Shown here: piece after piece, positions 37,075-57,200 of the stretch
How the letters are laid out: each line of letters begins with the position of its first letter
Position numbering within the stretch: the stretch's first letter is position 1
From: Candidatus Omnitrophota bacterium
GTDB lineage: Bacteria; Omnitrophota; Gorgyraeia; Gygaellales; Profunditerraquicolaceae
NCBI GenBank assembly: GCA_016208765.1
Contig: JACQXK010000038.1
Coordinates: 14,955 to 78,954 of the forward strand
Direction: 5' to 3'
Length of the DNA stretch: 64,000 bases
The notes under the pieces: model-generated
Database searches by the model: none
What the model was told of the DNA's origin: nothing
Seen by the model: only the letters and a program-made list of their open reading frames with translations
Translations under genes and position numbers: made by a program

Positions 37075-37135
37075 ATCCTTCTTTCTATTGATCCTTAAGT
37101 CGGCCGAAGGCCTCCTTCAGATGACGGTAGCGCAA

Positions 37136-37993: not shown

Positions 37994-38002
37994 AACTATA
38001 GT

Positions 38003-40293: not shown

Positions 40294-40329
40294 TTCAAGA
40301 CCTCTTCTTAGGCACTTAACCTATAGCGC

Positions 40330-42084
40330 TTATTGAGCAATAGGAGTTAAAGCCTGAATACACGCTGCGCGCTCAGCCTGTGTCGGCTTCAGGCAACATT
40401 TTCTATATTCTTCTTTTTGGTTAACAACTTTCTTGCCGGCCTCTTCAATTATATTTGCGCTTCTATACGACAAAAGGTATCCTAACATATAGTCTGCACC
40501 GACGAAAAATGGGTCTCCGGGGGGACAGGGTTGATACAGCCATTGCCAATCGCACCATTGATGGCATTGTGCTTCTGAATTAAATATGGGAGATGCGCCA
40601 AGAGCGGCGAAACACCACCGAAAACCAAACCAAGGATCTTCTATCCAGATTTTGCACCATTGATACCTGCCCCCGCCAACTTCTTTACAATTTTGTTTCG
40701 GATGATTTGCCCTCCACGGGATTGCGCATTGCGCTTCGGTAAAATTCTCATCTTGCCTGCCATCATTACAAAAGTCACAGGCCATGCCGCTGTTTTCTGC
40801 TGCGCAATTCAGGCATTTAGCCCTGTTTCCCGCGGCGAGCGCCCCGCATCTTTGACAGGAAACAATGTAAGCATTACAAGCTGCTGCATTACATCCGGCT
40901 TCAAATCCGGAAAAACAAGTTTTACAAGATACGGGGCTATTTGCACAAGTTTTACAATCATTATTCAACTGAACCTTGTTACAGTTTAAATCACTGCCGC
41001 AGTAAGTTGAAATCGCCCCGTCAAACGCAGCTGAAGATTGGGCGCCGCAAACACATTGGCCAAAGCACCCGCAATTAACGTTAAAAGTATTAACAGTTAA
41101 ACCGCATCCTTCTTTGCCCAAACAAGATTGTTTACAATCTTCACCGGGCTCAAAAGGAGTAATGCTATAAATCCTTTTATTTATGGAATCCTCGCATGCC
41201 TGTCGCAGCCCCTGATCAACAATGTGTGAGCACATACATTGGGCCTGTTCTTCAACCGACCGATAGCTGCTGCAACGGCACTCAAGCTGCTTCTGCGGGT
41301 TATCCTCTTTCACATTACAAAAACATCTTTGCTGATCCGCAAAAGTTGCCTGGCTGCAACAACCGACCATGCCGTCTCTTTTCTGTTTAAGTTTGGCGCC
41401 TTCAGTTTCAAACTTAGAGGCCAGATCCCAAAGCTTGTGTGCTGCCTTTTTCAATTCACTGGCGGTTTTACCCCAATTACCCCACCAACAGATTTCCCAC
41501 GGGTCATCGCATTGGCTTGCCTTATCCCACATACTATTGGCGTTTCGCCAAAAATTACAGGCCATCCCGTCTCCGCAGCGATTTCCCCCGATTTTTCCGC
41601 AATCCTCATTCTGCCCGCAATATTGTTTCACCTGATTAGTCAGGGCATTTACCATCGGCTGAACCCTTGACAGACAGATACAACGGGTATAACAAGGACA
41701 CTCCTTATTAAATTTTCCATCTTTATCAAAACAGGCTTGATCATTATTACATTGCTCAAGGCACTCTGAGGGGCTGAACCCGCCGCCCTCAAATAAACCT
41801 TTACTCCAGGCATCAACCTGTTGCCCGGGTTCTCCCTTAAAGACCCACTCCTCGGTTAATTCCAAAGGCCTAAAAGGCACAACACTAACAAGATCTGTTT
41901 TTTGTTCCTGAACGGCAGGTGTCCCTGCCTGAAGGCGGGTTTTTTGATAGATGACATCGCGCGCGGCATAATTGGCATTAAACCAAACCATGACCCTCGC
42001 TATGCCGATTACCAAAATAAGAATGCCGACAAAAGTAAAAACAAAATCCAGTATTGACTGGGATTTCTTTTTATTCATTGGCAT
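40330..42084 (-). CDS. Cysteine-rich (about 75 Cys) pseudopilin-like protein with a Flp/TadE-type N-terminus; candidate pilus tip adhesin
   Basis: N-terminus MPMNKKKSQSILDFVFTFVGILILVIGIARVMVW (pilin-like KSQSILDF + TM), followed by about 520 aa with dense C-x-x-C / C-x(3-6)-C spacing. Confidence 0.6.
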   Translation of the reverse strand: MPMNKKKSQSILDFVFTFVGILILVIGIARVMVWFNANYAARDVIYQKTRLQAGTPAVQEQKTDLVSVVPFRPLELTEEWVFKGEPGQQVDAWSKGLFEGGGFSPSECLEQCNNDQACFDKDGKFNKECPCYTRCICLSRVQPMVNALTNQVKQYCGQNEDCGKIGGNRCGDGMACNFWRNANSMWDKASQCDDPWEICWWGNWGKTASELKKAAHKLWDLASKFETEGAKLKQKRDGMVGCCSQATFADQQRCFCNVKEDNPQKQLECRCSSYRSVEEQAQCMCSHIVDQGLRQACEDSINKRIYSITPFEPGEDCKQSCLGKEGCGLTVNTFNVNCGCFGQCVCGAQSSAAFDGAISTYCGSDLNCNKVQLNNDCKTCANSPVSCKTCFSGFEAGCNAAACNAYIVSCQRCGALAAGNRAKCLNCAAENSGMACDFCNDGRQDENFTEAQCAIPWRANHPKQNCKEVGGGRYQWCKIWIEDPWFGFRWCFAALGASPIFNSEAQCHQWCDWQWLYQPCPPGDPFFVGADYMLGYLLSYRSANIIEEAGKKVVNQKEEYRKCCLKPTQAERAACIQALTPIAQ

Positions 42085-42110
42085 GAAAACATTATGAACA
42101 TGAAGTTGTT

Positions 42111-42176
42111 GTCATGCCCGCGGACGCGGGCATCCAGACGTTCCAATGGCTGGATTCCCGCATTCGCGGGAATGAC
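42111..42176. repeat. Palindromic intergenic repeat copy D (between the tadE-like gene and the Cys-rich pseudopilin gene)
   Basis: gtcatgcccgcggacgcgggcatccagacgttccaatggctggattcccgcattcgcgggaatgac. Confidence 0.85.
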
Positions 42177-42183
42177 GGTTAAG

Positions 42184-43008
42184 TTATTCCAAAGATGTTT
42201 CCCAAGTCTTCTGCCTGACAATTTTATTATCTACTTTGTCTTTGCTGTATTCCGCGGTAGTGCGGACCAAACGCCCGGTATCCGGGTCTCTCTCTTCTTT
42301 GCTGGATACGCCAAAACTATAAGCTGCAGGCTGAGCATTATATTCATACTCAGGAAGCTTTCCTTGCTCCCATGGTTGCTTATCATCCCACGGCTCTTCA
42401 TCTACAGCCTTATCAAAACGGGTATAAATCTTAGTTTCAATATTACTTGTCAGCTCGGATTTTTTACTGGTTCTAATCCCGTTACCAGCAGGAAGATTTT
42501 CCTCCCGCTTGGCATACGAATCATATTTCTCAACAACGCGTCTTTCTTCCTTCCAAATACTCTCCGGAGCTGTAATCTCGCGTTTGCTGCCGTCAAATCC
42601 TACAACTTCTTTCTTCTTACGGGCAAGGCCGGTATCAGCATTACCGAGCGGCTGGCCGTTGATTTCATAAAACGCGTAGGAAGCATCATTGTCAACACCC
42701 TGCGGCCCCGGCATTCCCTTTTGCCACATCAGGCTTGCTGATGCTCCTATTGTTGAAGGCTGCCCCTGGCCAAAACCACCTAAAAGATTAAAAAAACGTG
42801 CGTCCTTTTTTATTGTATATGAAACCGTGCCGTTTTTTTCGTAGGCTTTTTGCATTGCTATGCGAAAGGCGTCCATTTTAAGCTTCTGCTGCATTTCAAG
42901 CCTCTGGCCGAAACTTAATAAAAGCGAAGCGCCTAACAGCATCATGCTGCTAAGCACCGCTAATTCCACTACTGACTGTGCCTTCGCATTGCGAGAATAT
43001 ATTTTCAT
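42184..43008 (-). CDS. tadE: TadE-like pseudopilin
   Basis: MKIYSRNAKAQSVVELAVLSSMMLLGASLLLSF has the prepilin-like motif plus a hydrophobic helix. Confidence 0.6.
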   Translation of the reverse strand: MKIYSRNAKAQSVVELAVLSSMMLLGASLLLSFGQRLEMQQKLKMDAFRIAMQKAYEKNGTVSYTIKKDARFFNLLGGFGQGQPSTIGASASLMWQKGMPGPQGVDNDASYAFYEINGQPLGNADTGLARKKKEVVGFDGSKREITAPESIWKEERRVVEKYDSYAKREENLPAGNGIRTSKKSELTSNIETKIYTRFDKAVDEEPWDDKQPWEQGKLPEYEYNAQPAAYSFGVSSKEERDPDTGRLVRTTAEYSKDKVDNKIVRQKTWETSLE

Positions 43009-43050
43009 TTTAATTTATATCTCTTGCCGGGTCAACTATTATTTAAATAC

Positions 43051-43551
43051 TTACCCTCCTAATTTGTCATTAACATCGCTGCTTAAATTATTGCGCAGAG
43101 CGTCTACCTCATCCCCAAGATCTTTCTTCGCAGGAAGAGCGTGATTATCTACAGAATATGCTCTGAGCGCTGAACGAAAATCTTCTCCAACAGCAACGCT
43201 CAGGCTATGCTCAGTGTTTCCGACTGAGGAAGAAAAGCTGATATTCCGAGGAGAAGATGTCTCGGTTAATTGCGTATCCTGCTTATTCTGGCTCACAGAT
43301 TTAGTTACCACAGAATCATCGCCTTTATACTGCTGAGTGTCCTGCCCCCACCTGCCCCAGAAACAATAATCCGCGCTTGCTGCGACTTTTGCGCGCAGAG
43401 AGCGGGAAACTATCTTCTGGGTAAAAAGCCAACCCATTGACAATACCGCCAAAACCGCTACCCACATACTAAGGCTTTGGCCGCAACGGCTGTTAAATAA
43501 CTTATTTTTCGTCAGCAAAGGCATCCACCCCCTCTGTCTTACTAAAAGCAT
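43051..43551 (-). CDS. Minor pilin-like protein (weak prepilin motif RCGQSLSMWVAVLAVL); start uncertain (43551 or 43524)
   Basis: ORF track entry. Overlaps the 3' end of flp6 in another frame. Confidence 0.4.
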   Translation of the reverse strand: MLLVRQRGWMPLLTKNKLFNSRCGQSLSMWVAVLAVLSMGWLFTQKIVSRSLRAKVAASADYCFWGRWGQDTQQYKGDDSVVTKSVSQNKQDTQLTETSSPRNISFSSSVGNTEHSLSVAVGEDFRSALRAYSVDNHALPAKKDLGDEVDALRNNLSSDVNDKLGG

Positions 43552-43834
43552 TGGTGGTTTGGCTCTGAGTTACAGTCATCCCAAGAGGAATATTATCGCT
43601 CTCAACACCGGTCCTGGAATCAGAATAGGTAGAGGTTTTTGTAATTGTGGTAGAGGCAGTATGCCCGGGGGAATATTGCATCCCGACTTCATCTACCTCT
43701 CTTTTGATCCTGCCCTCATAACACCTCTTTACATAAAACTGCATGATCATCAGTGCGCTGAGGATCAGGCAGAACAATACCGTATATTCTACAATGCTCT
43801 GCCCGATCTTAGACTTTTTCAATGCGCGAAACAT
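43502..43834 (-). CDS. flp: Flp-family pilin with C-terminal extension (flp6, 110 aa)
   Basis: MFRALKKSKIGQSIVEYTVLFCLILSALMI. RBS TCAGGAGGC. Confidence 0.8.
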   Translation of the reverse strand: MFRALKKSKIGQSIVEYTVLFCLILSALMIMQFYVKRCYEGRIKREVDEVGMQYSPGHTASTTITKTSTYSDSRTGVESDNIPLGMTVTQSQTTNAFSKTEGVDAFADEK

Positions 43835-43860
43835 AACTCAGCCTCCTGATAAAAACGATA

Positions 43861-44298
43861 TTACTTGGCGTATTCGCCCGATAAATCTTCTGCGTTTTCC
43901 GCAGTATATTCAGACCAACGAGTCTTTTCCTGGTTAGCTGAATCAGTTGAAGACTTCGTAGCCATTGTCATTTCTCCGCCTGTCCTCTGATTAACAGAAT
44001 AAGTATCCTTCTCCAAAGTATTGACTGACGCATCTATTCCTTCGGGAAGAAAATCTCCGATCGCACCAGTTGTAGCAGAAGCATCAACTATTTCCTGAGG
44101 GCTATTCATTGTCCTTTTATTAAGGACAGTGGTCCCTCCTGCAGAAAACTGCTCGCCCATTTTATCCGCAGATTCCTTAAGGTTACCCTGGAACCCTCTT
44201 TTTACAAACACCTGCATGATCAAAACTGCAGCCACGACCACACCCAACAAAACTGCATATTCAAGTATTGACTGACCTCTATTACGTTTATTAAACAT
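43861..44298 (-). CDS. flp: Flp-family pilin with C-terminal extension (flp5, about 145 aa)
   Basis: MFNKRNRGQSILEYAVLLGVVVAAVLIM. GGGAGGTG lies upstream of the ATG at 44298. Confidence 0.8.
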   Translation of the reverse strand: MFNKRNRGQSILEYAVLLGVVVAAVLIMQVFVKRGFQGNLKESADKMGEQFSAGGTTVLNKRTMNSPQEIVDASATTGAIGDFLPEGIDASVNTLEKDTYSVNQRTGGEMTMATKSSTDSANQEKTRWSEYTAENAEDLSGEYAK

Positions 44299-44326
44299 CT
44301 TACCAATCACCTCCCTTTAAATAAAG

Positions 44327-44704
44327 TTATTCTGCCGCATCCAGAGTTTCAATGCTGACTGCGCTGGTTGTAGTAGTCTGGCTCTGTTCACGATCTTCCT
44401 TGCCGCCTTTATGCAGAATGCTCTTGTCTACAAAAGTCTTATCATCAACGGTTGTTTTACGCAAATCCTGGGTATACAAAGATTGATCGCTACCTGAAGT
44501 GCTGTAGCTGGACAAATCAAAATCTGAATCGTTCGCCTTATCTTCTTTTCCCCCGGCTTGCTGCAAGAAATTCAATGACTGCGTGCTCTTATCGCGTATG
44601 CCGCCTTTTAAGGCCACAGACAAAAATCCTGCCGCAACTGCCACCACCAATCCTAATGTAATCGCGTATTCTGCTGTTGATTGCGCTCTTTTACTTAAAA
44701 ACAT
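44327..44704 (-). CDS. flp: Flp-family pilin (flp4, 125 aa)
   Basis: MFLSKRAQSTAEYAITLGLVVAVAAGFL. RBS GAGGAGGTGAGC. Confidence 0.8.
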   Translation of the reverse strand: MFLSKRAQSTAEYAITLGLVVAVAAGFLSVALKGGIRDKSTQSLNFLQQAGGKEDKANDSDFDLSSYSTSGSDQSLYTQDLRKTTVDDKTFVDKSILHKGGKEDREQSQTTTTSAVSIETLDAAE

Positions 44705-44727
44705 TTTTGCTCACCTCCTCTTAAATT

Positions 44728-44916
44728 TTATTCTTTAAATATACCTGTTGTTAAATCATTGGTCGTGTTTTGAATGGCATCTCCCGCCTTATCATATGCG
44801 CCCTTTATTTTCGTTTTAACTCCTCCGAACAACGCCACAACAATTACAGTGATCACCGCGCCCAATAACAGAGTGTATTCCAAGATGCTCTGGCCTTTCT
44901 TAAAATCACGTCTCAT
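44728..44916 (-). CDS. flp: Flp-family pilin (flp3, about 62 aa)
   Basis: ATG at 44916 preceded by GAAGGAGGTGA. MRRDFKKGQSILEYTLLLGAVITVIVVALF. Confidence 0.8.
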   Translation of the reverse strand: MRRDFKKGQSILEYTLLLGAVITVIVVALFGGVKTKIKGAYDKAGDAIQNTTNDLTTGIFKE

Positions 44917-44975
44917 TTTCTCACCTCCTTCACAATAAGTGAACACTTGCCTATCCAATAAGGCAAGGTGCCTTT

Positions 44976-45119
44976 TTATTTTAATTCGTCCTGAATCTGT
45001 TTAATTCTTGCGTTCATTGAACGATATACATAACGCTGCGTAATTAACAGTGCCCCGGCCACTACGGTAAACAATAAAACAAACTCAATAATACTTTGTG
45101 CTCTTTTATTCCTAATCAA
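44976..45119 (-). CDS. flp: Flp-family pilin missing from the ORF track (flp2, 47 aa, TTG start)
   Basis: Hand translation: (M)IRNKRAQSIIEFVLLFTVVAGALLITQRYVYRSMNARIKQIQDELK*. GGGGGTG lies 5 nt upstream of the TTG. An upstream in-frame TAG rules out a longer ORF. Confidence 0.6.
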   Translation of the reverse strand: MIRNKRAQSIIEFVLLFTVVAGALLITQRYVYRSMNARIKQIQDELK

Positions 45120-45291
45120 CTTGCACCCCCATAAATGCTGCTATGGTCTGAAAATGATTCTCAAACACATTATTCTTTGTTTTTAGAAGAAAATCAGTGC
45201 TTACTAAGGCAATCACAGCTACTGCTGCCAAAAGCAGATATTCTACGAAAGATTGTCCAATCTGGTTTCTTAAAGACTTTTTAAATTTCAT
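45112..45291 (-). CDS. flp: Flp-family pilin (flp1, about 59 aa), first gene of the pilin array, under promoter/leader L3
   Basis: ATG at 45291 preceded by AAGGAG. MKFKKSLRNQIGQSFVEYLLLAAVAVIALV. The track ORF 45112..45444 reads through the leader. Confidence 0.75.
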   Translation of the reverse strand: MKFKKSLRNQIGQSFVEYLLLAAVAVIALVSTDFLLKTKNNVFENHFQTIAAFMGVQVD

Positions 45292-45302
45292 TAGTATCTC
45301 CT

Positions 45303-45489
45303 TAAATAAAAAACCGACGTCTCTTTTACTTTCAAAGAAACCTCGGCTTTCGGTAACCCGGCTAATGCTCTCGCTCTTGACCTTAAAGCTTAAAGCAATG
45401 AAGACAAATCTTGCGAGCGTCATCCCGTGGCTTTGCGCATCCACCCCTCCAAGAGTGGAATTGCCTTTTCGTTGCCGCCCTTCAACTAC
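45303..45489 (-). promoter_or_regulatory. Leader L3 upstream of the flp array, sharing the 3' half of the L1/L2 leader
   Basis: Sense strand: ...GCGCAAAGCCACGGG...GCCGGGTTACCGAAAGCCGAGG...GACGTCGGTTTTTTATTTAAGGAGatactaATG. aaataaaaaaccg matches L1 exactly over 13 nt. Confidence 0.45.
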
Positions 45490-45495
45490 ATCATA

Positions 45496-45524
45496 AATAT
45501 AACATGCACAAACATGGGTGTCAA
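45496..45524 (-). promoter_or_regulatory. Sigma70-like promoter of the flp array (TTGACA, 17 nt spacer, TATATT)
   Basis: Sense strand: TTGACAcccatgtttgtgcatgtTATATT. An ATGTCC half-site abuts the -35. Confidence 0.5.
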
Positions 45525-45555
45525 GGACATTTCAGCTCAAACAGGAAAGCGCTTT

Positions 45556-47370
45556 CTAAACCTGAAACCAAATTGACTTGTTGTCACAAGACTTAATCTC
45601 ACGCTCATTTAACCTCAGGCAGGCGTATTTGAGCTCCCTTAAATAGCGAAAACCCTGCGCAGGCTTAAAAATATAAATTAAATCATTGCCTTTGTGCTCA
45701 ACATGCACTTCCATGGAGTAAAACTGCTCTTTTACCGTCGGAAAATCAATATTTTCCGCGCCGGCAGGAAAAAAATACCTTTTAAAATATGCGTCTAATG
45801 CCAAAAGATACTGATTAAACAAGGTTAATGTGTCACTCTTCACATATTGCTGCAGGCTTAATGATTCTGCAGAAAAACCCTGCTGCGAACTTGCCGTGTA
45901 AGTAAAAAATTCTATTTTACGCTGAAAGTCCTGCAGGCCTTCTTCAAAATTTGGCCAATGCTCCAGATAAAGCACAGCCAGATCTTCAATTTTAATCTCT
46001 TCCGGAGCAATATTTGAAAGAATAAAAAGGCGAGGCTTATCCGAGAGGGAGTTTTGTAAAACGCACCCTCTTAATGTAACATTATGCGTTGCATGTGGTT
46101 GCGATAGGCTGACTTCAATTGGAGCAAGAAAATATTCCTTATTTAGGGTGCTAAAATAATATGGCCTAAATTCCCCTGTTTTCTTTATCTTTCTATAACC
46201 ACTGTATTGCCAAGGCCATAGCGCAAGAATAAGCCTTCTTTTTTGCGGTTTCATGGTGAAGATCTCCAGCTCATCCAAACGGTTGCCATAAAAAGTTAAT
46301 GAGCGGATTTGCTTTTGCTGGTTTTCTAAAGCCAAAAGAAAATTCAAGAATTCAACTGGTAAATCTTCCCCTCCAGGGCAAGAATAAAAAACAAGCGGCT
46401 CATTTTCAAAGAAATGCCTGTTTATGTAATTCTTTGCAGCCAAAAGAGTTGTGCCAAAATCATAAGGCACATATGCTGCCGACCAAACTGTGCGTAACTG
46501 CCCGTCTAAATACAGGCTCTGCCCGTCTGAAAGCACAACCTTGATACAACGCACAGGCTCAAAGGTATTAACGATCGTACGAAACACATCTATATTAATT
46601 TCTTTAACCGTTTGGATACTATCAAGATATGCGTTAATTTCCTCCTGGGAGAATTGCTTTCCGGTTAGATTTGCTGCTAAAGAAAGCCTTTCATAAGATA
46701 AATTTGCCAAACCTTCTAATTGCAAGTAAATTACGCTTTCAGTAATTAGCGAAAAATCACCTGAGACAAGTTTTATCCTGCGCTTGATCACCTCGGCAAT
46801 ATGTTTAGAGCCTTGCAGGAGATAATCCATGGCTTTCAACAAGATCAAACCATTCAACAGGATTTCTTTTTGCGGTTTTATTTCAGGCAGCACCTCTGGT
46901 ATTTCTGCCACGGGGGTTTGCTCAGTAACAGATTCTCCGACGGGAATCTTTTCTTTTTCACCGGTTATCTCTATGGGCAGGTTTATTTCTTCAACAGGCT
47001 TTAAAGGTACAGCTGCTTCGGGCATAATTACTGTTTCTTCTGGTTTTGCCTGCGCAGCAACCGGCATGATTTCTATTGCCGGCTCGGCTTTTACTTCATC
47101 GGGCTGTTTCAAAATGCCTTTTAAGTCATCCTGAGAGAGGGCATTGGCCGGCCGAAGGATCTTAACTCTGCGGCGCTTACAAGGCCTTCCTACCGGCATG
47201 CTTAAGCTGGCATTCTTAATGATAAAATTAATACTTGATTTGGAAAGCTTAATATTAAATTTGTGCTGAACCAAAGAGGTGAGGCCACGGCAGCTCAGAG
47301 AATGATCATTCTTTTTTTCCTCTAAGACGAAGCTGATTACCTCTGATTTAATTTTGTAGATTACGCCCAT
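45556..47370 (-). CDS. 604-aa protein with N-terminal helix-turn-helix (transposase-like HTH, ...SMPVGRPCKRRRVK), Pro/Glu-rich linker and a large C-terminal domain; candidate locus regulator
   Basis: ORF track entry. RBS GGAGAGAG. Its promoter is bracketed by AGATTGGACATTT sites. Confidence 0.5.
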   Translation of the reverse strand: MGVIYKIKSEVISFVLEEKKNDHSLSCRGLTSLVQHKFNIKLSKSSINFIIKNASLSMPVGRPCKRRRVKILRPANALSQDDLKGILKQPDEVKAEPAIEIMPVAAQAKPEETVIMPEAAVPLKPVEEINLPIEITGEKEKIPVGESVTEQTPVAEIPEVLPEIKPQKEILLNGLILLKAMDYLLQGSKHIAEVIKRRIKLVSGDFSLITESVIYLQLEGLANLSYERLSLAANLTGKQFSQEEINAYLDSIQTVKEINIDVFRTIVNTFEPVRCIKVVLSDGQSLYLDGQLRTVWSAAYVPYDFGTTLLAAKNYINRHFFENEPLVFYSCPGGEDLPVEFLNFLLALENQQKQIRSLTFYGNRLDELEIFTMKPQKRRLILALWPWQYSGYRKIKKTGEFRPYYFSTLNKEYFLAPIEVSLSQPHATHNVTLRGCVLQNSLSDKPRLFILSNIAPEEIKIEDLAVLYLEHWPNFEEGLQDFQRKIEFFTYTASSQQGFSAESLSLQQYVKSDTLTLFNQYLLALDAYFKRYFFPAGAENIDFPTVKEQFYSMEVHVEHKGNDLIYIFKPAQGFRYLRELKYACLRLNEREIKSCDNKSIWFQV

Positions 47371-47379
47371 GCTCTCTCC

Positions 47380-47450
47380 AGATTGGACATTTCCTCTACA
47401 ATATTACCATTTTTATGCGGCGTGTCAAGCTCTTTATAGATTGGACATTT
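47380..47450 (-). promoter_or_regulatory. Promoter of the HTH-protein gene (TTGACA, 16 nt spacer, TAATAT) flanked by two direct AGATTGGACATTT sites
   Basis: Sites at 47380-47392 and 47438-47450. -35 at 47423-47428, -10 at 47401-47406. Confidence 0.5.
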
Positions 47451-47793
47451 ATTCTTGAACAGCTAAGATATCACCAACTTGGGCTTGAGATGCGGAAATA
47501 CTGCCTGCGGAAAATTCTACAACATAGCGCGCCTGCCAGAAAATCGAGCTAAACTTAAACGGCTTAAGCGCAAAAAGCATAGCAACAACTTTGTAATTTT
47601 TGTCTAAAAAGAGCGCATCAATAGAGAAGCGCATAAAAAAGGTGTGAATTGAATTGCAGGGTTTAATTAATAACGCTGTATCTTGCGCCAAACTGCTTCT
47701 ACCCAGCAATCCCCTGGTCCTTGACCAAAAATTATCTGCAATAATCAGCTTCTGGGCAAGCACAATATTCTTAGTTTGATTTAGTAAGCGCAT
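47449..47793 (-). CDS. DUF192 (COG1430) family protein
   Basis: ...LIKPCNSIHTFFMRFSIDALFLDKNYKVVAM... matches the DUF192 core. Confidence 0.55.
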   Translation of the reverse strand: MRLLNQTKNIVLAQKLIIADNFWSRTRGLLGRSSLAQDTALLIKPCNSIHTFFMRFSIDALFLDKNYKVVAMLFALKPFKFSSIFWQARYVVEFSAGSISASQAQVGDILAVQE

Positions 47794-47797
47794 TTAG

Positions 47798-47823
47798 ATC
47801 CTTCGCTCGTTCAGGATGACGTC
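47798..47823. repeat. S-element copy 3 (reverse orientation) spanning the tadZ-tadA stop codon
   Basis: gatccttcgctcgttcaggatgacgtc. Confidence 0.6.
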
Positions 47824-49967
47824 TTAAAGACATCATCGGACAAAGCAATGCCTTTAATTTTAAGCTCTTGCACAAATGGAGGGATGTAACCGGTAGCCGT
47901 AAAATTTCCTAAAACCTTGCCCTGATTGTCAACGCCGGTCTGACGAAAATTAAAAACGTCTTTTAAGCCGATATGTACTTCGTCTTTCATGCCGCTCAAC
48001 TCTGATATTTGTATTATTTTACGCGTCCCGTCGCTAAGGCGGGCAGTGTGCACAATAATATGCAATGCAGAAGCAATCATCTCACGAATAGCCCTGATCG
48101 GAAGCTCTACTCCTGACATAAGGATCATAGAATCAAGCCTGACTAAAACATCCTGCGTAGAATTAGCATGCACAGTCGTCATAGAGCCGTCGTGGCCTGT
48201 GTTCATTGCCTGAAGCATGTCCAGGGTTTCTGCGCCGCGGCACTCTCCTATAACAATTCTATCGGGGCGCATACGCAGAGTGTTACGAAAGAGTTCACGG
48301 ATAGAAATCATCCCTTTCCCTTCAATGTTAGGCGGACGCGACTCTAACCTGATCCAATGCTCCTGGCTTAATTTAAGTTCAGCCGCATCTTCAATAGTAA
48401 CAATTCGCTCGGTATTTGGGATAAAAGCTGAGAGGATATTTAAAACCGTAGTCTTACCCGAACCCGTCCCACCGGAAACAATAACATTCTTTCTGGCGAC
48501 AACACACGCCCTGATAAAATCTGCCATTGCCTTACTAACAGAGTTCATGGCGATTAATTCTTCTATCTTAAATTTTTCTTTTCTAAATTTACGGATCGTC
48601 AGCGTCGGCCCGGTAAGCGCCAAAGGCGGGATAATCGCGTTTACGCGCGAGCCGTCGGCAAGGCGGCTATCCACCATCGGCACAGATTCATCAATGCGCC
48701 GGCCGGTAGGAGCAATGATACGCTCAATAATCGTTTTTACCTGATCATTAGAAATAAACTTTTTGCTGGTCAGCTCTATTTTTCCATGACGCTCAATATA
48801 CACTTCATCTTTGTTATTAACCATGATGTCGGTAATGCCGGGGTCTGCCAAAAGGTCTTCTAAAGGGCCCAACCCAAGCGCCTCATCAACTATTTCCTTG
48901 ATAAATTTGTTGCGCACCTCCATAGAAGAAATAAAACTGCCGGCCTCATCGGTGAGTAAGTTAGAAACAATTACTTCTGCTTTCTTCCTAAGCTCATGTT
49001 TTTTCACCGCGTCGCTAAAGATCTTGACGTCTAGCCTTTTAATATTCATTTCATCAATCAGGCGGTTATGGATCCGGCGTTTGATCAAAAGCACCTGATC
49101 GGTTTCTGCTGCCACCTCTTCCTCTTGCCCGGCAACGCTAACACCGAATTCTTTCCAAAATGCCGCAGGCTTCTCCAACTGCTCCTTACCTGCCTCAAGA
49201 GCCCCGATCTCTCTGTGAGAAGTATATAATCTTTCTTCAACGATAAGTTTGTGCGCGAATTTCTTGATTGCCTGAGAGATGCCGGATTTAGGCACATCTA
49301 CCACTACCGGAACGCGGCGGTTAATAGAAAGCCCGACGATTTTACCCTCTGAGGGCAGTGCCGCAATAATCTCGCTGGACAAATTAACCTGCAACTCTTC
49401 AAGGCTGATACTTGAAACAGATTCTGAACGGTTAATCACCACCTTGATCATCGTCAAAGGAAAATGCATTGACTGCAAAGTATCCACAACCCACTTCGTC
49501 TGGTATACAGATAAAATATCCGGAGTTACCAAAAGAAGGATCAAGTTTGACTGATTAATTGAACGCATAAATATTTCATTAAAACTCTTACCGGCATCAA
49601 TTACAACATAATCATAATCGCTGGCATATAATTTAAAAATTGTATCAATGCACTCAGGAGGCAAAATCGCGGCCTGTTGCGGTTTTAAAACCGCAGGAAG
49701 GAAATCAAAACCAAAAGCAGTATGCGTAATAAATGCCTGCTTTTCCGCATCAGCCTTTTGTCTTTTAATGGCTCCGGAGATATCAATCATTGATTTTTGC
49801 GGGCCAAGATTAAGCATCCTTGACAGATCCCCTACACCCTGCAAATCAAAATCCATTAACAAGACGCGTTTTTTCTCGTCGCGGGAAAGGCTCGCGGCAA
49901 GATTAGAGGCGACAAAGGTTTTACCCACTCCACCTTTTGTGCTGAATATTGATATTACCTTAGACAT
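47811..49967 (-). CDS. tadA: Fused TadZ/CpaE-like (MinD/ParA-type) N-terminal domain + TadA/CpaF secretion ATPase
   Basis: N-terminus MSKVISIFSTKGGVGKTFVASNLA (deviant Walker A). C-terminal part VSGGTGSGKTT...DRIVIGECRG...TGHDGSMTTVHANS (VirB11/CpaF Walker A, Walker B, His box). Confidence 0.8.
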   Translation of the reverse strand: MSKVISIFSTKGGVGKTFVASNLAASLSRDEKKRVLLMDFDLQGVGDLSRMLNLGPQKSMIDISGAIKRQKADAEKQAFITHTAFGFDFLPAVLKPQQAAILPPECIDTIFKLYASDYDYVVIDAGKSFNEIFMRSINQSNLILLLVTPDILSVYQTKWVVDTLQSMHFPLTMIKVVINRSESVSSISLEELQVNLSSEIIAALPSEGKIVGLSINRRVPVVVDVPKSGISQAIKKFAHKLIVEERLYTSHREIGALEAGKEQLEKPAAFWKEFGVSVAGQEEEVAAETDQVLLIKRRIHNRLIDEMNIKRLDVKIFSDAVKKHELRKKAEVIVSNLLTDEAGSFISSMEVRNKFIKEIVDEALGLGPLEDLLADPGITDIMVNNKDEVYIERHGKIELTSKKFISNDQVKTIIERIIAPTGRRIDESVPMVDSRLADGSRVNAIIPPLALTGPTLTIRKFRKEKFKIEELIAMNSVSKAMADFIRACVVARKNVIVSGGTGSGKTTVLNILSAFIPNTERIVTIEDAAELKLSQEHWIRLESRPPNIEGKGMISIRELFRNTLRMRPDRIVIGECRGAETLDMLQAMNTGHDGSMTTVHANSTQDVLVRLDSMILMSGVELPIRAIREMIASALHIIVHTARLSDGTRKIIQISELSGMKDEVHIGLKDVFNFRQTGVDNQGKVLGNFTATGYIPPFVQELKIKGIALSDDVFKTSS

Positions 49968-49970
49968 AAT

Positions 49971-51647
49971 TTACTCTAACTGATAGGAAATCGGGATATC
50001 CACCCATAATTCTTTAGTGCCGATTGTCGTAGGAAACGGAGGATACTGAGAAATCTGTTTTGCAACTTTTAAAGCGTTATCGTCAAGTATTTTATAGTTT
50101 GAGGAATTCTTAACCACGGCATCCAGCAAATCACCTTTGTAAGAAATAAGCAGGCTCAGTTGCACTGTCCCTTCAAACCCGGATTGCTTTGCTTGGGCAG
50201 GATAGGCTAAATTCTTCATAATCTTTTGTTTGATTATGCCTGTGTATTTTGCAACAGGGTCTAACGCATACTCGTCTGCAACTTCAACTGTAGAAGCAGC
50301 TTTTTTTGCCTGCTCCATGCTAATATCCATTTGTTTTGCATCTGGGGTTAACGGTTGTTGAGGTTTTTCGGCATCTGCAGGCTGCTCCTCGGTTTTCTTT
50401 TCCAAATAAGGAGTTTCCCTGCTGACAATCGTCGGGGTAATGATAATATATAATTCGGTATCTGCTTTCTGCCCTGTGCCGCCGCCGGTCTTGGTTACTC
50501 TTTTTCTAAAAGCTCCCCCAACCAAAGGAAGGTCCCCGAACCAGGGAACCTTGGTTACCTGTTCCTCGGTTTTCCTGCGCATCAGGCCGCCGATGGATAA
50601 TGTCTGCCCGTTCAACAGGAATAGCTCTGTTGAGGCATTGCGCTTGGTTAATGGGAATGCCTTTGCAGTAATGTTGGTCGCTGTGCCAAGAGTTTCCGCC
50701 TCGCCGTAATCGCTAACCTCCATTTTCACTCCCAACTTAATACGGTCATCGGGCATTACTGTTGGTTTCATCTTAAGCTTAATCCCAAATTCTTTATACT
50801 CAACTTCTGTGCCGGAAGAACCTGCTGTCGCCGCCACAGAAGTAGTGAGCACGGGCTTTTCTCCTCCGACGAGCAATTCAGCTTCTTTGCCGCTTTGACA
50901 GGCAAGCCGCGGACGGGAAAGAATCTTTGCCTTACCCTCCTCTATTAAAGCATCCAGCTTTAAGGTAAATGCGCTGTCTCGCTTAACATTTAAAAGCCTG
51001 AATACATTAGAAAATGCCGTACCACCAGCAGCCAAACCCGGAGAGCCTACTTCAGTAAGACTGACAGAACTCGGCCAGGTAACTCCGAGAGTTTTGCTTG
51101 CATCCTGATCAAGTTCTAAAACCTGCACATCAATTTCTACCACAGATTCTTCTTCGCGGACAGTAGTCAAATTTATTGTTTTTGCCATTAAAGGGCCGAG
51201 CGCCAAAGAAATTTTTTTAATGTCATCGTCGCTTTTTACCCTGCCTAAAAGCATTACCTTGCCTTCCTCATCAGAATCCTTTGTATATACCTCGGGAAGA
51301 TCTAAAGTTTCGAGCATGCTGTCTATTCTACGTTTAATATCCTTCATATCTTCTGTATAGACCCTTATTTCCTGTGACTTTTCTCCGGAAGCATCCCAAT
51401 AAAAAAGAGTAGTTGTGCCTCGGCCTTTGGCAGCAACAATGATAGTATCTTTGCTGACCTCTACCACATCAATTACCTGAGGGTTAGAAATTACTATTCT
51501 CGTCGGGTTAGAAGCAGAAATAGGCCGCGTGTCTCCGACATACATAACAAATTCCTCGCCTGATTTATCCGCAGCGCCCAAAACGCCAAAACAACATAAA
51601 ATTGCAAACCCCGACACAATAAAACTCTGCAAGATTCTTTTTGTCAT
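49971..51647 (-). CDS. cpaC: Tad secretin (RcpA/CpaC family) with C-terminal TonB-C-like domain
   Basis: Secretin core ...TLSIGGLMRRKTEEQVTKVPWFGDLPLVGGAFR...ELYIIITPTIV. C-terminus YPAQAKQSGFEGTVQLSLLISYKGDLLDAVVKNSS...LDDNALKVAKQISQYPPFP matches the TonB_C pattern. Confidence 0.75.
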   Translation of the reverse strand: MTKRILQSFIVSGFAILCCFGVLGAADKSGEEFVMYVGDTRPISASNPTRIVISNPQVIDVVEVSKDTIIVAAKGRGTTTLFYWDASGEKSQEIRVYTEDMKDIKRRIDSMLETLDLPEVYTKDSDEEGKVMLLGRVKSDDDIKKISLALGPLMAKTINLTTVREEESVVEIDVQVLELDQDASKTLGVTWPSSVSLTEVGSPGLAAGGTAFSNVFRLLNVKRDSAFTLKLDALIEEGKAKILSRPRLACQSGKEAELLVGGEKPVLTTSVAATAGSSGTEVEYKEFGIKLKMKPTVMPDDRIKLGVKMEVSDYGEAETLGTATNITAKAFPLTKRNASTELFLLNGQTLSIGGLMRRKTEEQVTKVPWFGDLPLVGGAFRKRVTKTGGGTGQKADTELYIIITPTIVSRETPYLEKKTEEQPADAEKPQQPLTPDAKQMDISMEQAKKAASTVEVADEYALDPVAKYTGIIKQKIMKNLAYPAQAKQSGFEGTVQLSLLISYKGDLLDAVVKNSSNYKILDDNALKVAKQISQYPPFPTTIGTKELWVDIPISYQLE

Positions 51648-51657
51648 TATTTTTCCT

Positions 51658-52611
51658 CTATTTATTGGATAAAGGCATTCTTTCTTTGTTTAAGCCCCGA
51701 TAAATCTCTACGAAACCTTTTTCTTCCCGCGGCTTTTCAGCTTCCACGTTAGAAGGAGTTATATAATTTAACAAGGTATCCCAATCAGCCGGCTTGGTTT
51801 TGTCAATCTGGGTATCTCCCGGAGAGCGCAGCACCAGCCTGATTTTTCCTTGTTCGTTAACAAACGATATTAAGTTCGCCTCTTCCGGAGAAAGCGCCAA
51901 TGTAATTAAAGGTGAAATGTCTTTCTTTTTGTCGCTGCCTTTGGATTTAAAAATCATTCCTGCTTGCGGAGATAAAATTTCATCTCCAACTGCCAGCACT
52001 AAAACGTTTTGAAATAAAGGCACAGTGCTTTTATCTTTTTGCTTTTCATTATCTTTTACGCCCATTGGCCCGCTGTTAGGCAGGGCAATAATAGCAATCA
52101 AATCCACAAAATCACCCGGCTTAATCATTCCTGCCAAAGAAGAGATATTGTCTACCGAAATCGTGATCGCCCTTTTCCCTGCGGGAGTAACTTCGGCTAA
52201 TCCGCTTTCTTTTTGGGTATATTTTTGCTTTCCGCCACCTTCTATCTGCGTGACCTTATTTGCAGTGATCTGTTCCCCTTTTAAAATATCTTCAATAACA
52301 CCCATTCCCGCTACTGCATCCATAGCTGTTGCCGCATTAGGACGGACATATTTTTCAGGGATTACTTGCGCAACAACCATAGAAGGATCTATAACTGTGC
52401 CGCGCGGAAGATCCTTATTTGCCACCAACACTGCCACCATAGAAGATTGTAAACGCTTAAATTCTTCTTTAGCGTTCTCTGTAACTTTTTTCTTTTCAGT
52501 CTCTATTAGATACTTGACCGTAAAGACAGTAACCACTGCCAAGACGATACTGATCAACACCATCGGGATTTTTTTCTGCATATTCTGCATATTATTTAAT
52601 TTCTCCCTCAA
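51658..52611 (-). CDS. cpaB: Flp pilus assembly protein CpaB/RcpC
   Basis: N-terminal TM followed by ...DLPRGTVIDPSMV... (SAF/CpaB). Operon position. Confidence 0.65.
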   Translation of the reverse strand: MREKLNNMQNMQKKIPMVLISIVLAVVTVFTVKYLIETEKKKVTENAKEEFKRLQSSMVAVLVANKDLPRGTVIDPSMVVAQVIPEKYVRPNAATAMDAVAGMGVIEDILKGEQITANKVTQIEGGGKQKYTQKESGLAEVTPAGKRAITISVDNISSLAGMIKPGDFVDLIAIIALPNSGPMGVKDNEKQKDKSTVPLFQNVLVLAVGDEILSPQAGMIFKSKGSDKKKDISPLITLALSPEEANLISFVNEQGKIRLVLRSPGDTQIDKTKPADWDTLLNYITPSNVEAEKPREEKGFVEIYRGLNKERMPLSNK

Positions 52612-53509
52612 TAATTTCTATTTTTGCTCCGCGGTTTAGCTGATCAATCATATTTTCCATTTTCTGCTGCTGCTTTAAAAATACGAGCGCGCGCTTAATA
52701 TCATCCCACATTTCAGACAATGTCTTTTGCTTACCCCCACGCTTACCTTCTAATTTAACAATATAATAACCGTCGGGGCCTTTAAATATGCTGCTGACCT
52801 TGCCGACTTCCAGCGAATCGGAGAAAGCCACTGTATCAAACTGTTCCGACTTTTTACCTCTCTGCAAATATCCAAGGTCGCCTCCGGATGCCGCGCTCTT
52901 TGCCCTTGAGCGATCTTTTGCAATAGTGGCAAAATCTGCTCCCTGCAAAAGCTGGATCATAATATCTTTTGCATCCTGCTCGCTGGGAACCATAATCTCC
53001 CTGATCTGCCGCTCTTCGGGTTCCTTCAGCTTATCTTTATACAAGTTATAATATTCTTCAATTTCTCCTGAAGTAACATCCACATTTTCGGTTTCTTTAC
53101 GCACAAGCTCTAAGACAAGCAGATTCTGTTTTGTTTTTTCAAGCGCCAAAAGAATGTCTTCTTTTTTATCAAGCCCTTGCTTTAATGCCTCCTGATATAA
53201 AAGTATCTGGCGGACCTTGTCATTTTTCAAATACTCAATTTTTTTATCACGGGTGGTGATTTTTAATTCCGGCTTATCTGCCGGGACGGAAGCATTGTAG
53301 GCCTCTATATCCTGATTCAGATCTTCAAGTGTAACCGCTGTGCCGTTAACCTTAGCTACTATCGGCCCCTTTCCCACAAAAGCCGTAGAAACAGAAGCAG
53401 ATTTTTTCGCCGGGCTCTTTTTTTGCTGCAACATCGGGAGCTTATCGCAACCTATTATTACCATGATAGCACAAAATAAAACTAAAAGGATCCTTCTGTT
53501 CATCTTCAT
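52592..53509 (-). CDS. PpiC-type peptidyl-prolyl isomerase lipoprotein (SurA/PrsA-like)
   Basis: Lipobox VIIGC. Parvulin motif ...QGADFATIAKDRSRAKSAASGGDLGYLQRGK...SSIFKGPDGYYIVKLEG. Confidence 0.65.
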   Translation of the reverse strand: MKMNRRILLVLFCAIMVIIGCDKLPMLQQKKSPAKKSASVSTAFVGKGPIVAKVNGTAVTLEDLNQDIEAYNASVPADKPELKITTRDKKIEYLKNDKVRQILLYQEALKQGLDKKEDILLALEKTKQNLLVLELVRKETENVDVTSGEIEEYYNLYKDKLKEPEERQIREIMVPSEQDAKDIMIQLLQGADFATIAKDRSRAKSAASGGDLGYLQRGKKSEQFDTVAFSDSLEVGKVSSIFKGPDGYYIVKLEGKRGGKQKTLSEMWDDIKRALVFLKQQQKMENMIDQLNRGAKIEIIEGEIK

Positions 53510-53521
53510 CCTCCTTTAAAA

Positions 53522-53764
53522 CTACTCTTTTTTTATCTCGTTAATAATCTTGATCAACAATTCCGCAATCTTGGCGATAATATATAGGAAAAAGAACAGG
53601 AACCCGTATACAGCCAAAACCACAAGGCCCATCCAGCGCGGATACGTGCTGGCAAAACCCAGCATGATCGCAGCTCCCCCTACCGCTCCAAAAAACAAAA
53701 AAATCCAGGCAGCAGCTTTCACCACCACACTGGCAAATTTAAGAAACTCTAAATGTTCGCGCAT
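53522..53764 (-). CDS. Small membrane protein (about 80 aa), unknown function
   Basis: ATG at 53764 preceded by AAGGAGG. Two hydrophobic helices. Confidence 0.5.
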   Translation of the reverse strand: MREHLEFLKFASVVVKAAAWIFLFFGAVGGAAIMLGFASTYPRWMGLVVLAVYGFLFFFLYIIAKIAELLIKIINEIKKE

Positions 53765-53799
53765 CAAACCTCCTTGTTCAATATATTACTTGATTATTA

Positions 53800-54215: not shown

Positions 54216-57200
54216 TTATTTAGATACAAAGTTTATACCGGCTAAACTTGATTGAAATTCTTCTCCTGTTTTTTCCGACTCAAGCGCAACTAAAAATTGT
54301 TTTAAACCGGTGTCTGTCGCGCAACATTCTTCTTCCTGCTTTCTTAATATATCTGCCATCAGGCTGATTACTTTATCTATTTCCTGATCAAAATTATTTA
54401 CAGCGCAACAATTAGATAAATACTCTTTAATTCTTTGCGCTGAAGGAGTAATTCCTCCATTGAACATCCTCTCAATTGCTTGCCATTCTTTGGCTAAAGA
54501 GCCATCCGTAGAGTAGAGGAGGTTTAAACCTCCTCTACTAACTGGTGACTGGTGACTGGTGACTGGTGACAGCATCCCCGGCTGTGTCACAATCGGCAAA
54601 ACGCGCATATCAATACCACCTTTTTTGTCCGCTGATGATGAAACAGGATACTCAGTATTAACCATCGCAATATTTTCAGCTTCCTTCTTTTTTCTAGCGT
54701 CAACTAAACTAACTACCTTAGGCGGACTTTGTAATGTCAAATTAACACCTAATATCTTTGCTGATTTTTCCCTGATAAGATTAATCTCATCTGTAATAAG
54801 CCCATAATCGGATTGAGAAATAATCTCTTCACCTCTAACCTCTTTTGCATATTTTGATATTATCGTAATAAAACGGTTTACTGCATTCCAAGCATCTTCA
54901 TTGCTTCCGGAAATATTAATCTCGTAGCGCGGTTGTCCAAAAATCTCGTTAAGCTCATCACGAAGCTCTTTAACATTATCCGAACTCAAAGTCGTGTTCT
55001 GCAATATATAATCCCCCAGATGCATTCTTAAAAGCAACAGCAAATCTTTTACCTGTTTTTTATCTACGTTCAATCTGACATCTTCTTGTCCCGCGCTTAA
55101 CGAATAATCCCGGTTTATATTTATCACAGGAGGATATTTTTCCACCGCCGAGGAGGCTGTCGCACCGGCTCCCGCATTAACGTTATCTCTTTCGGTTTTT
55201 ATATTACCTCTCGTGGCATTGAGAATCTGTGATAACAATAATACTGCAGAAGTATCCGCTGCCTGCTGATTATATTTATTCTTAAAACCTATATATGTAT
55301 TAAACGCTCTTGCACCAGCTGCCGCAGGGTCAGCCATGAGTTTCTTAAAATTTTGAAGACTAAATTTCAAAGCTCCTTTTCTTCTGGAAATAAAATCCTT
55401 AGCCGATAAATTAAACAACCAATCCCCAGGAAAATATAAAATTGGTTTTACAAGGCCTGCCGGCTCAAATATATTTCTATCTTCACCGACAATACACAAA
55501 TCTGCGATTGCAAACATTTTTAACAATTCTCCTGTTGTATAGAGAATCAAAACATCCTTTTCCGACATGTCTACAAACTTTTCCGTAGTTGTTCCCCGGA
55601 TTTCAACGATTTTGCTTGCGACCGTTTCAGGTAAACCACCGGGCCATTTTTCTCTTGGCGCAAAAATTAATAGCGGCCTATCCTGACGGGGTAGATTACC
55701 ATATAATTCATCAAATGCCTTAGCCACAGCATTTGCTTCGTGATAATAAGGAGAGCCCACAACAATAATTTTTCTCTTACCGACATTTAATTCTTTTTTT
55801 ATCCGGGCTGCTTCCTCAGAAGCCACAAATTCCTGCATACTGTGTTTAAAAGGAAAGTAGGGCAATGAAACAGAGGCGCCCACCTCTTTATCAACTCCGC
55901 GATGATCATGAAATTCTATCCAGATATACCTCCCATCATCCTGAACCTTGTTGGGCGCAACGAGCTTTTCTGCACGATAACCTGGAAATTCTTTTTCTAC
56001 AACTTCTTTTTCTTGGATATCCCCAAGAAAACTAAATTCGGCTGTGCCGCTATCCAAACCTAATGCTTCAATAAAACCTCTGGCGGCACGAAGCGAAGCA
56101 AACTCATAGGCGACAAACTTAATTTTTTTTCCGCTTAATTTTAAAGCATTTTTAAAAATACGGCCGATTGCGATGATTTGATCGCGGCCGACAGCCTCAT
56201 CTGGCCTGCCCAATTTATCAACTAACTTATTAAATAAAATTAACGCGAGATTCTCAAGTTCTGCCTGAGCATTTTCTTTGCCTATTCTTTCAGCGCCAAA
56301 AAAGACATTGCTGATTCGTAACAAATTTGCTTTGGTTTGCACAGAATTACCGACAACAACTATTTCATCTTTTAAGACAGGAAAGGCAGTCTCAAATAAA
56401 TCCACTGCGTTTTCTTTCGCCAATACACCGGCTTCTACAAGGGTCTCAAAATACCTATCAAAAAACTCCATCCCAAACTCTTTAACAAAAACCTGTAGGC
56501 TATCAATAAACAAGTTATTAGATTCTCTGCCGCTAGCCATAAGCAGAGAAACAAGGCCATTGCCAATTCTTTGCAGATTCTTGGTAGTTTTTTCTGCATC
56601 ATCTTTTACGACAATTAACTCTTTAAATATTACCAAACCCAACTCACACAGAACCCATGCTTCCTCGCCTGAAGATTTAAAAAGCTCAACAAGAACATTC
56701 CAATTTGTTTCCATAAAATGCTCTCCGTATGCTTTATAGAAAACTGGCAGGCTATTTGCAAATAAGAGAATGGCGTTTTCTCCGGAGCTCTGGGCAATCT
56801 CTACCAAGCTATCCCAATGTTTAGTGACAAAGGCCATGCCGACTTCTTTTGTTAACCTGGGTAAAGCAATACGGAATAGAGGGCTTGCTATTTTTTTATT
56901 AGCCCCACAGAACTCAACCAGTCTTTCAGAAATTCCTGTCAAAGAAAGAATTTGCTGAGTCTCTTCAGGAAGGTCATTAAATGAAATTTTTGTAAAAGTA
57001 AAGATTTCTTTATTATAATCTTCCCTGATTGAGCCTCCCACCGCCGATGAGGAAACGTTGGATAACTTAGGCTTAAATGCGATCGCCGCAGGAGAATTGT
57101 CTTTTTCATTTTCAAAAATAATTCTCTCAACTTCTTTCTTTCTATTTTTATAAATGTCAGCTATCAGTTCATCAACATAGGGAACCCTTTTTTCAATCCT

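Follow-up and report, generated by a model that had tools for sequence, protein, structure and literature searches.

Among the Tad (type IVc) pilus systems described to date, the closest to the one reported here is that of Bdellovibrio bacteriovorus HD100, in which tad locus 1 encodes a fusion ATPase, TadZA, that was described and characterised in a preprint of July 2026 (bioRxiv 10.64898/2026.07.08.737194). In that protein the atypical receiver domain (ARD) is missing and the linker is flexible; binding to the polar hub RomR requires the TadZ-plus-linker region and is achieved by this region alone. Bdellovibrio TadZA shows dynamic behaviour with enrichment at the invasive pole, prey invasion strictly requires the Tad machine, and the fusion was not surveyed outside B. 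bacteriovorus in that work. Here, a gene that very probably belongs to the same fusion family is described in a 64-kb stretch of DNA (the window) from a Candidatus Omnitrophota bacterium (GenBank assembly GCA_016208765.1, contig JACQXK010000038.1).

In the canonical systems of Aggregatibacter, Caulobacter and Pseudomonas, TadZ (CpaE) and TadA (CpaF) are the products of two genes, and a study of the type IV filament superfamily regards TadZ as encoded by its own gene beside that of TadA and links it to archaeal type IV pilus components by profile comparison (PMC6668835). That TadZ acts in localisation or as an assembly hub is known only experimentally, from Aggregatibacter, Caulobacter and Bdellovibrio. 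Polar assembly in Caulobacter requires CpaE at an early stage, and cryo-electron tomography of Caulobacter assigns CpaF to the inner cytoplasmic ring and CpaE, only speculatively, to an outer ring that is lost on deletion of cpaF (PMC12637624). Papers on Omnitrophota report Tad complexes with TadB and TadC grouping with those of Bdellovibrionales (PMC10066038), and the fusion is not mentioned in them. Beyond the Bdellovibrio preprint, a literature search for CpaE/CpaF or TadZ/TadA fusions returned only fluorescent-protein fusions and operon names, and a search for Tad in Velamenicoccus archaeovorus returned nothing. An earlier note on the window, made from the sequence alone, had stated that described Tad systems keep TadZ and TadA separate; the preprint has made this statement outdated (10.64898/2026.07.08.737194). 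Hence, the protein is of a kind already described and is not a new class of machine. What appears new relative to the literature searched is that all through Omnitrophota the fusion is the standard form and that it appears to belong to one lineage across several phyla, together with a linker motif specific to Omnitrophota.

The tadZA gene and its product

The fusion gene comprises 718 codons plus a stop codon at positions 47811–49967 of the minus strand, on which all features given below also lie. The open reading frame (ORF) begins with ATG, contains zero internal stops, and encodes a protein with the N-terminus MSKVISIFSTKGGVGKT, in which a deviant Walker A motif occupies residues 8–16. The KGGVGKT motif in the N-terminal part and the GSGKTT motif with Asp, Walker B and His boxes in the C-terminal part, which the earlier note had read from this single 718-aa ORF, were confirmed, and the strand was added. 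A Pfam scan, proposed in the same note, revealed the predicted families, namely CbiA/AAA_31/ParA at residues 2–188 (E about 1e-14) and T2SSE at residues 364–643 (211 bits, E 2.6e-62). An identical 718-aa protein is encoded on contigs of two independent Logan assemblies made from different runs (SRR12113402 and SRR12113406), the DNA of which is 100% identical to the window across 6963 and 4025 bp, respectively.

A search of 5.8 billion proteins gave at least 120 Omnitrophota clusters of 714–730 aa that match the protein at 99–100% query coverage and 64–91% identity, and all named clusters among these are Candidatus Omnitrophota. An exhaustive search of 1.84 billion representatives of clusters formed at 50% identity added dozens of end-to-end matches in a single stretch with 39–57% identity, and full-length fusions account for about half of the best 150 of these representatives. 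The frame is kept through such divergence, indels in the linker included, and is thus under selection.

The AlphaFold2 monomer model, calculated with a 50-sequence alignment (mean predicted local distance difference test score, pLDDT, of 74), consists of an N-terminal domain of residues 1–250 (pLDDT 80–95), a linker of residues 251–288 (pLDDT below 40), a helical region of residues 285–363, and the two lobes of CpaF. The N-terminal domain (N-domain; 49218–49967) has the ParA/MinD fold of a TadZ-type ATPase, as indicated by the model, the match to PDB entry 3EA0 and the scores against TadZ proteins given below, and is not preceded by a receiver-like ARD. The complete CpaF/TadA part spans residues ~289–718 and includes an N-terminal helical region (residues 289–363; 48879–49103), an N-terminal lobe that begins where the T2SSE match begins and aligns with CpaF structures (residues 364–465; 48573–48878), and a catalytic C-terminal lobe with the Walker A motif and the Asp, Walker B and His boxes (residues 466–718; 47814–48572).

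The C-terminal 427 residues scored 384 bits (E 6e-114) against Caulobacter CpaF structures, and 137 and 115 bits against FlaI and VirB11, respectively. The top four Foldseek matches of the model are CpaF, with 45% identity in the Foldseek alignment. The best NCBIfam model for this part is TIGR03819 (TadA family) at 345 bits, below its equivalog cut-off of 373. The Walker A motif SGGTGSGKTT is at residues 497–506 (48450–48479). In comparisons of 34–50 homologues, E525, D526 and E529, R566-P567, R569 and G573-E574, and H591 and H599, which make up the Asp, Walker B and His boxes, were invariant or nearly so, and K295 and H299 of the helical region were invariant across clades. Judged from its sequence, the C-terminal half is a TadA/CpaF secretion ATPase and a close homologue of CpaF.

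The flexible linker between the two parts (residues 251–288, about 38 aa; 49104–49217) varies between clades in length and sequence. In Omnitrophota it carries a motif of the general form [F/L]W-x3-G-[LMV]-x-E, represented in the window by FWKEFG (residues 269–274; 49146–49163), in which W270 was found in 38 of 38 aligned sequences and G274 in 97%. The linkers of Bdellovibrionales do not have the FW-x3-G motif and instead share a conserved basic motif, LQKLKxLSRPK.

In the N-domain, both lysines of the deviant Walker A motif STKGGVGKT (residues 8–16; 49920–49946) are kept. In an alignment of Omnitrophota and Bdellovibrionales sequences, K10, G11, G12, G14, D38 and D123 were invariant, and the P-loop lysine K15 was present in at least 90% of the sequences. 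Degenerate variants of Walker A occur in other branches of the fusion family, and the family motif grades from canonical to degenerate. The form KGGVGKT fits the pattern K/R-G-G-x-G-x-S/T yet keeps the P-loop lysine, which the atypical motif of TadZ is usually without, though some stand-alone TadZ proteins have KGGVGKS. The best solved match of the N-domain is a ParA-family ATPase of Chlorobium tepidum (PDB 3EA0, 245 aa), both by sequence (E 1e-19) and by fold (Foldseek template modelling, TM, score of 0.89–0.91, root-mean-square deviation of 2.3 Å). MinD, FleN and FlhG rank behind it, and TM scores are 0.8–0.9 for 3EA0, FleN and MinD. Like the N-domain, 3EA0 consists of the ParA fold alone and has no receiver domain; unlike it, 3EA0 is a stand-alone protein with an atypical KGGDGGS Walker A motif.

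Stand-alone TadZ proteins encoded directly upstream of tadA matched the whole N-domain with 80–161 bits in at least 30 loci, and one of them is 38% identical to it over 240 aa. These proteins come from Firmicutes, Actinomycetota, Chloroflexota and others, and several have KGGVGK[ST]. The NCBIfam MinD models scored 82–85 bits against cut-offs of 202–213, and the MinD, ParA and BcsQ models all remained at or below 85 bits. The genomic context is a Tad locus, not minCDE. The higher scores against positional TadZ orthologues than against MinD indicate that the N-domain is the ATPase domain of TadZ from which the ARD has been lost. No ARD was found in the window protein, the ParA fold of which starts at residue 2 and is preceded in the DNA by the secretin gene. 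The features that define TadZ were taken from secondary descriptions (PMC6668835 and the Bdellovibrio preprint). On these sequence grounds, residues 1–250 represent the genuine ATPase domain of a TadZ protein, without an ARD. The assignment of the halves to TadZ (CpaE) and TadA (CpaF) by the earlier note is hence supported by the 384-bit match to CpaF, the scores of up to 161 bits against stand-alone TadZ and the position of the gene, with the restriction that the TadZ half, although its ATPase domain is genuine, is incomplete.

Databases label homologues of the protein by one half only, as 'TadA / T2SS-T4P-T4SS ATPase' (NCBI) or as 'septum site-determining protein MinD' or 'CpaF' (JGI).

Distribution and origin of the fusion

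The survey of related genomes suggested in the earlier note revealed the fusion across Omnitrophota clusters, Bdellovibrionota and several other phyla. GTDB species representatives were scanned with a consensus sequence built from fused proteins, and the best 80 loci were examined at the level of ORFs. Fifty-nine of these have adjacent but separate tadZ and tadA genes and 12 are real single-ORF fusions; a first impression from tblastn, that about 70 scanned loci of many phyla contain fusions, was rejected by this check. In the split loci, which come from Firmicutes, Chloroflexota, Actinomycetota, Acidobacteriota, Planctomycetota, Proteobacteria and others, an ORF of ~400 aa lies directly upstream of tadA and has its ParA-fold domain at about residues 130–420, that is, it encodes canonical TadZ with a receiver-like N-terminal domain. 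The true fusions belong to Omnitrophota, Bdellovibrionota/Oligoflexia, Elusimicrobiales, WOR-3, a metagenome-assembled genome (MAG) of Planctomycetales, and unclassified MAGs.

Divergent full-length representatives with 41–43% identity to the window protein are named Bacteriovoracia, Bdellovibrionales and Bdellovibrionota, and when one of these served as the query, at least 120 additional clusters of full-length fusions were retrieved from Bdellovibrionales. The fusion protein of the cultured Bdellovibrio sp. HCB288 (L015, complete genome) is 41% identical to the window protein in one 700-aa high-scoring segment pair that extends across the junction. The gene order RcpC-secretin-TadZA is common to the window, Bdellovibrionales and other Omnitrophota loci.

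Bootstrapped neighbour-joining trees based on simple distances were built for the TadZ domain, the TadA domain and the two concatenated, using 36 fused and 54 split systems. Fused and split systems formed a perfect bipartition in the N-domain tree, and in the C-domain tree only P0149 fell outside the fused group. The concatenated tree showed a perfect bipartition with one inferred event, as compared with about 29 for shuffled labels; the bipartition was perfect in 61 of 100 bootstraps, and two events or fewer sufficed in 97 of 100. This bipartition favours a single origin followed by vertical and horizontal spread. Most likely, the TadZA family goes back to a single read-through between neighbouring tadZ and tadA genes, together with loss of the ARD.

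Several other explanations were weighed. Because tadZ and tadA are adjacent but separate in 59 of the 80 loci examined, one base error could mimic a fusion, and the ORF could then be an artefact in which the loss of a stop codon or a shift of frame, through faulty sequencing or assembly, joined two genes. A hidden stop or frameshift, the outcome against which the earlier note had cautioned, is contradicted by the concordant assemblies from different runs and by the architecture conserved in hundreds of orthologues (39–91% identity) that retain the single frame. The linker, moreover, contains an invariant Trp under selection, and the N-domain begins at residue 2, as opposed to stand-alone TadZ with its 130–180 extra N-terminal residues. 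The fusion is real, as established from assembled contigs and orthologues, and the artefact is effectively refuted. According to another explanation, the N-domain is a generic MinD/ParA/FlhG-type ATPase of the cell-division, flagellar or plasmid-partition kind that was recruited independently and is not orthologous to TadZ. The best NCBIfam models for the N-domain are indeed those of MinD, its KGGVGKT motif has the canonical MinD form, unlike the atypical TadZ form without the P-loop lysine, and the solved structure of Eubacterium rectale TadZ was not among the sequence matches at E < 1e-3 or the top 50 Foldseek matches. However, the MinD scores are far under the cut-offs, the stand-alone proteins upstream of tadA reach up to 161 bits and several themselves carry KGGVGK[ST], the best solved match has the atypical KGGDGGS, and the motif of the fusion family runs from canonical to degenerate. 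As the gene also occupies the tadZ slot and the window has no other TadZ, recruitment of a generic ATPase is highly improbable.

Even as a TadZ domain, the N-domain could be degenerate and non-catalytic, serving as a tether or pseudo-ATPase scaffold whose role does not depend on nucleotide. For canonical TadZ, ATP binding but low ATPase activity is reported (PMC6668835), and many members of the fusion family have a degenerate Walker A motif, but the invariance of K10, G11, G12, G14, D38 and D123 and the presence of K15 in at least 90% of sequences in both Omnitrophota and Bdellovibrionales make this unlikely for the window protein. Given these conserved nucleotide-binding residues, the TadZ domain probably retains nucleotide binding, and probably also hydrolysis. 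The remaining alternative concerns ancestry. The Omnitrophota fusion may have formed independently of Bdellovibrio TadZA, in which case the architecture is shared but the ancestry is not, and the mechanism possibly not either. Adjacent, co-oriented tadZ and tadA genes make repeated fusion easy, and the linkers of Omnitrophota and Bdellovibrionales have no motif in common. A number of observations weigh against the main reading of the window protein, and several of them favour such convergence. The perfect bipartition was found in only 4% (N-domain) and 15% (C-domain) of the single-domain bootstraps, and deep neighbour-joining nodes are weak. An earlier and cruder neighbour-joining tree of the CpaF domain, built with no bootstraps, had 38 of 49 fusions in one clade and 11 outside. 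The window N-domain scores 161 bits against one split Firmicutes TadZ, as compared with about 100–111 bits against fused N-domains of Bdellovibrionota, and the genome sample, being the best 80 loci, was picked by similarity to the consensus of fused proteins. As the linker is not conserved between Omnitrophota and Bdellovibrionales, the RomR mechanism is not simply transferable. Hexamer formation, dimerisation of the TadZ domain, localisation and the partner in Omnitrophota are all inferred. On the other hand, the bipartition is perfect in the N-domain and concatenated trees and is broken in the C-domain tree by P0149 only, shuffled labels require many more changes on the concatenated tree, and the ARD is missing from all fused members. 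The published grouping of Omnitrophota TadB and TadC with those of Bdellovibrionales (PMC10066038) fits shared ancestry or transfer of the whole locus. Independent fusion is hence regarded as rather unlikely, and the window gene is very probably a genuine tadZA of the same family as that of Bdellovibrio, encoding a Tad pilus motor with an N-terminal TadZ domain joined to it via a linker of ~38 residues.

Two to four CpaF modules are found in tandem in six database proteins of 830–1605 aa outside the window (P0121, P0122, P0124–P0126 and P0129). Either the motors are really fused in these proteins or separate genes were merged during gene calling.

Predicted role of the fused motor

The TadA part of the protein would assemble into a hexameric motor beneath TadB and TadC, by which Flp pili are extended and possibly also retracted. 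With K10, K15, D38 and D123 kept, the six TadZ domains tethered to it could dimerise in an ATP-dependent manner. These domains and the linker motif may jointly attach the motor to the membrane or to a landmark protein, so that the machine would be nucleated at a defined site, by analogy with the docking of RomR to the TadZ-plus-linker region in Bdellovibrio. Loss of the ARD suggests that recognition of the landmark has moved to the ParA-fold domain and the linker, as for RomR in Bdellovibrio. Since the linker motifs differ, the partner in Omnitrophota probably differs from that of Bdellovibrio. The fusion would fix a 1:1 stoichiometry of the two ATPases and guarantee their co-localisation, and in the ultra-small, probably host-attached cells of Omnitrophota the pilus would serve attachment to a host or prey.

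A wider proposal is put forward tentatively. One dispersed TadZA lineage, present in Omnitrophota, Bdellovibrionota/Oligoflexia, Elusimicrobiota, WOR-3 and some Planctomycetota, may have lost the ARD and may use phylum-specific linker motifs to plug the motor into different landmarks or membranes. Several of these phyla are predatory or host-attached. If the proposal is true, the FW-x3-G motif of Omnitrophota would identify a polarity or host-contact factor of uncultured nanobacteria. The conserved motif also gives a starting point in the search for the partner in Omnitrophota.

As "Rosetta-stone" evidence, a fusion found in nature speaks strongly for direct contact of TadZ/CpaE with the TadA/CpaF motor, a contact left unresolved in the cryo-electron tomography of Caulobacter, where CpaE could not be placed. 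In Omnitrophota and Bdellovibrionales the fusion is the usual form and seems to go back to one event. The survey shows that a feature described as "atypical" from a single predator extends to entire phyla of bacteria that are uncultured and probably depend on a host, with Tad machines that are evolutionarily linked. For annotation it implies that Tad detection models requiring a separate TadZ will under-call fusion systems.

The Tad locus and its comparison with known systems

The Tad locus is complete and comprises, in the order of the minus strand, genes for a peptidyl-prolyl isomerase (PPIase), RcpC, the secretin, TadZA, a DUF192 protein, a 604-aa protein, prepilins, a TadE/TadG-like protein, two T2SSF proteins and a lipoprotein. 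The SurA-like PPIase at the head of the locus (52592–53509) matches the Pfam Rotamase families. It is followed by RcpC/CpaB (51658–52611; Pfam RcpC and SAF) and by the RcpA/CpaC secretin (49971–51647; Pfam Secretin and T2SS-T3SS_pil_N), which has a C-terminal TonB_C domain and is located directly upstream of tadZA. The ATG of tadZA is 3 nt past the stop codon of the secretin gene. Thus, the TadZ domain sits in the slot between the secretin and tadA, as the 5' part of the tadA ORF. No second ParA-like or T2SSE-like ORF was found within the 64-kb window; with no other ParA-like ORF present, the locus is without a separate TadZ. Downstream, the DUF192 gene follows directly (47449–47793), then a series of ORFs of small to medium size that begin like Flp-type prepilins (42184–45444; GQSI[LV]EY-like in translation, with a weak Class_IIIsignal match), a TadE/TadG-like pseudopilin (39019–40293; Pfam Tad PF13400), and two platform proteins of the TadB/TadC type (37136–37993 and 36187–37074; Pfam T2SSF, E 4.9e-21 and 1.4e-15, respectively).

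Like Bdellovibrio TadZA, the window protein is a single ORF in which an ARD-less TadZ is joined to TadA by a flexible linker, its gene lies directly after rcpC-rcpA, and the domain trees place the two in one clade. No dedicated prepilin peptidase is present in the tad loci of B. bacteriovorus according to the preprint, and none (Peptidase_A24/TadV) was found among the scanned ORFs of the locus at 35629–53767; a Bdellovibrionales locus (L003) does encode one. The window differs in its phylum, Omnitrophota, and in the linker motif, FW-x3-G as compared with LQKLKxLSRPK in Bdellovibrionales. Both TadB/TadC-type genes are together in the window, whereas tadC of B. bacteriovorus is at a separate locus (preprint). 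In addition, the window secretin has TonB_C, and the locus adds genes for the PPIase, the DUF192 protein and the 604-aa protein.

With the canonical TadZ/CpaE and TadA/CpaF pairs the window shares the ATPase modules, their order after the secretin and the Tad components, but it has one ORF instead of two and is missing the ARD of about 130–180 aa. An analogy only can be drawn with archaeal FlaI and FlaH of the archaellum and Epd systems, where a secretion-type ATPase likewise works with another P-loop protein that binds ATP. Among the structural matches of the C-terminal part, FlaI ranks next after CpaF; FlaH, unlike the N-domain, has a RecA/KaiC-like and not a ParA-like fold and is a separate protein.

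The TonB_C fusion of the secretin was also found in two other Omnitrophota loci (L001 and L004) but not in the Bdellovibrionales locus L003, and the domain might anchor the secretin to peptidoglycan. The PPIase and DUF192 genes are outside canonical Tad loci and are conserved in other Omnitrophota Tad loci, the former in L001 and L004 and the latter in L002 and L004. The 604-aa ORF (45556–47370) matches neither Pfam nor NCBIfam families, and transmembrane segments are not obvious in it. A counterpart of 526 aa, 34% identical over 425 aa, follows DUF192 in the distant Omnitrophota locus L004; none was found in the other six fused loci that were compared, from Omnitrophota (L007 and L012), Bdellovibrionales (L003 and L015), Elusimicrobiales (L039) and WOR-3 (L045). 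The 604-aa protein looks like an accessory gene product of some Omnitrophota Tad loci. Its interpretation as a TadB/TadC fusion was rejected, there being no T2SSF match and no transmembrane-like segments, and the real platform genes are at 36187–37993.

Eight ORFs of 76–584 aa at 38003–45444 have Flp-type N-termini of the form [GAS]-Q-S-[IVT]-[LVIA]-[ED]-[YFL] followed by a hydrophobic helix, so that the pilin and pseudopilin repertoire of the locus is unusually large. The 584-aa prepilin-like ORF (40330–42084) is extremely cysteine-rich, and another comprises 274 aa.

The Tad locus is flanked by giant ORFs. The one at 1–26829 comprises at least 8943 codons, continues beyond the left window end, and gives a Peptidase_C39-like match near its N-terminus. 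The second, at 27546–35060, encodes 2504 aa with no Pfam match, and the third, at 54216–63905, encodes a product of 3229 aa in which HEAT repeats and two LysM domains are present. Giant genes are a known hallmark of Omnitrophota and have been reported beside pilus and secretion loci in the literature on this phylum.

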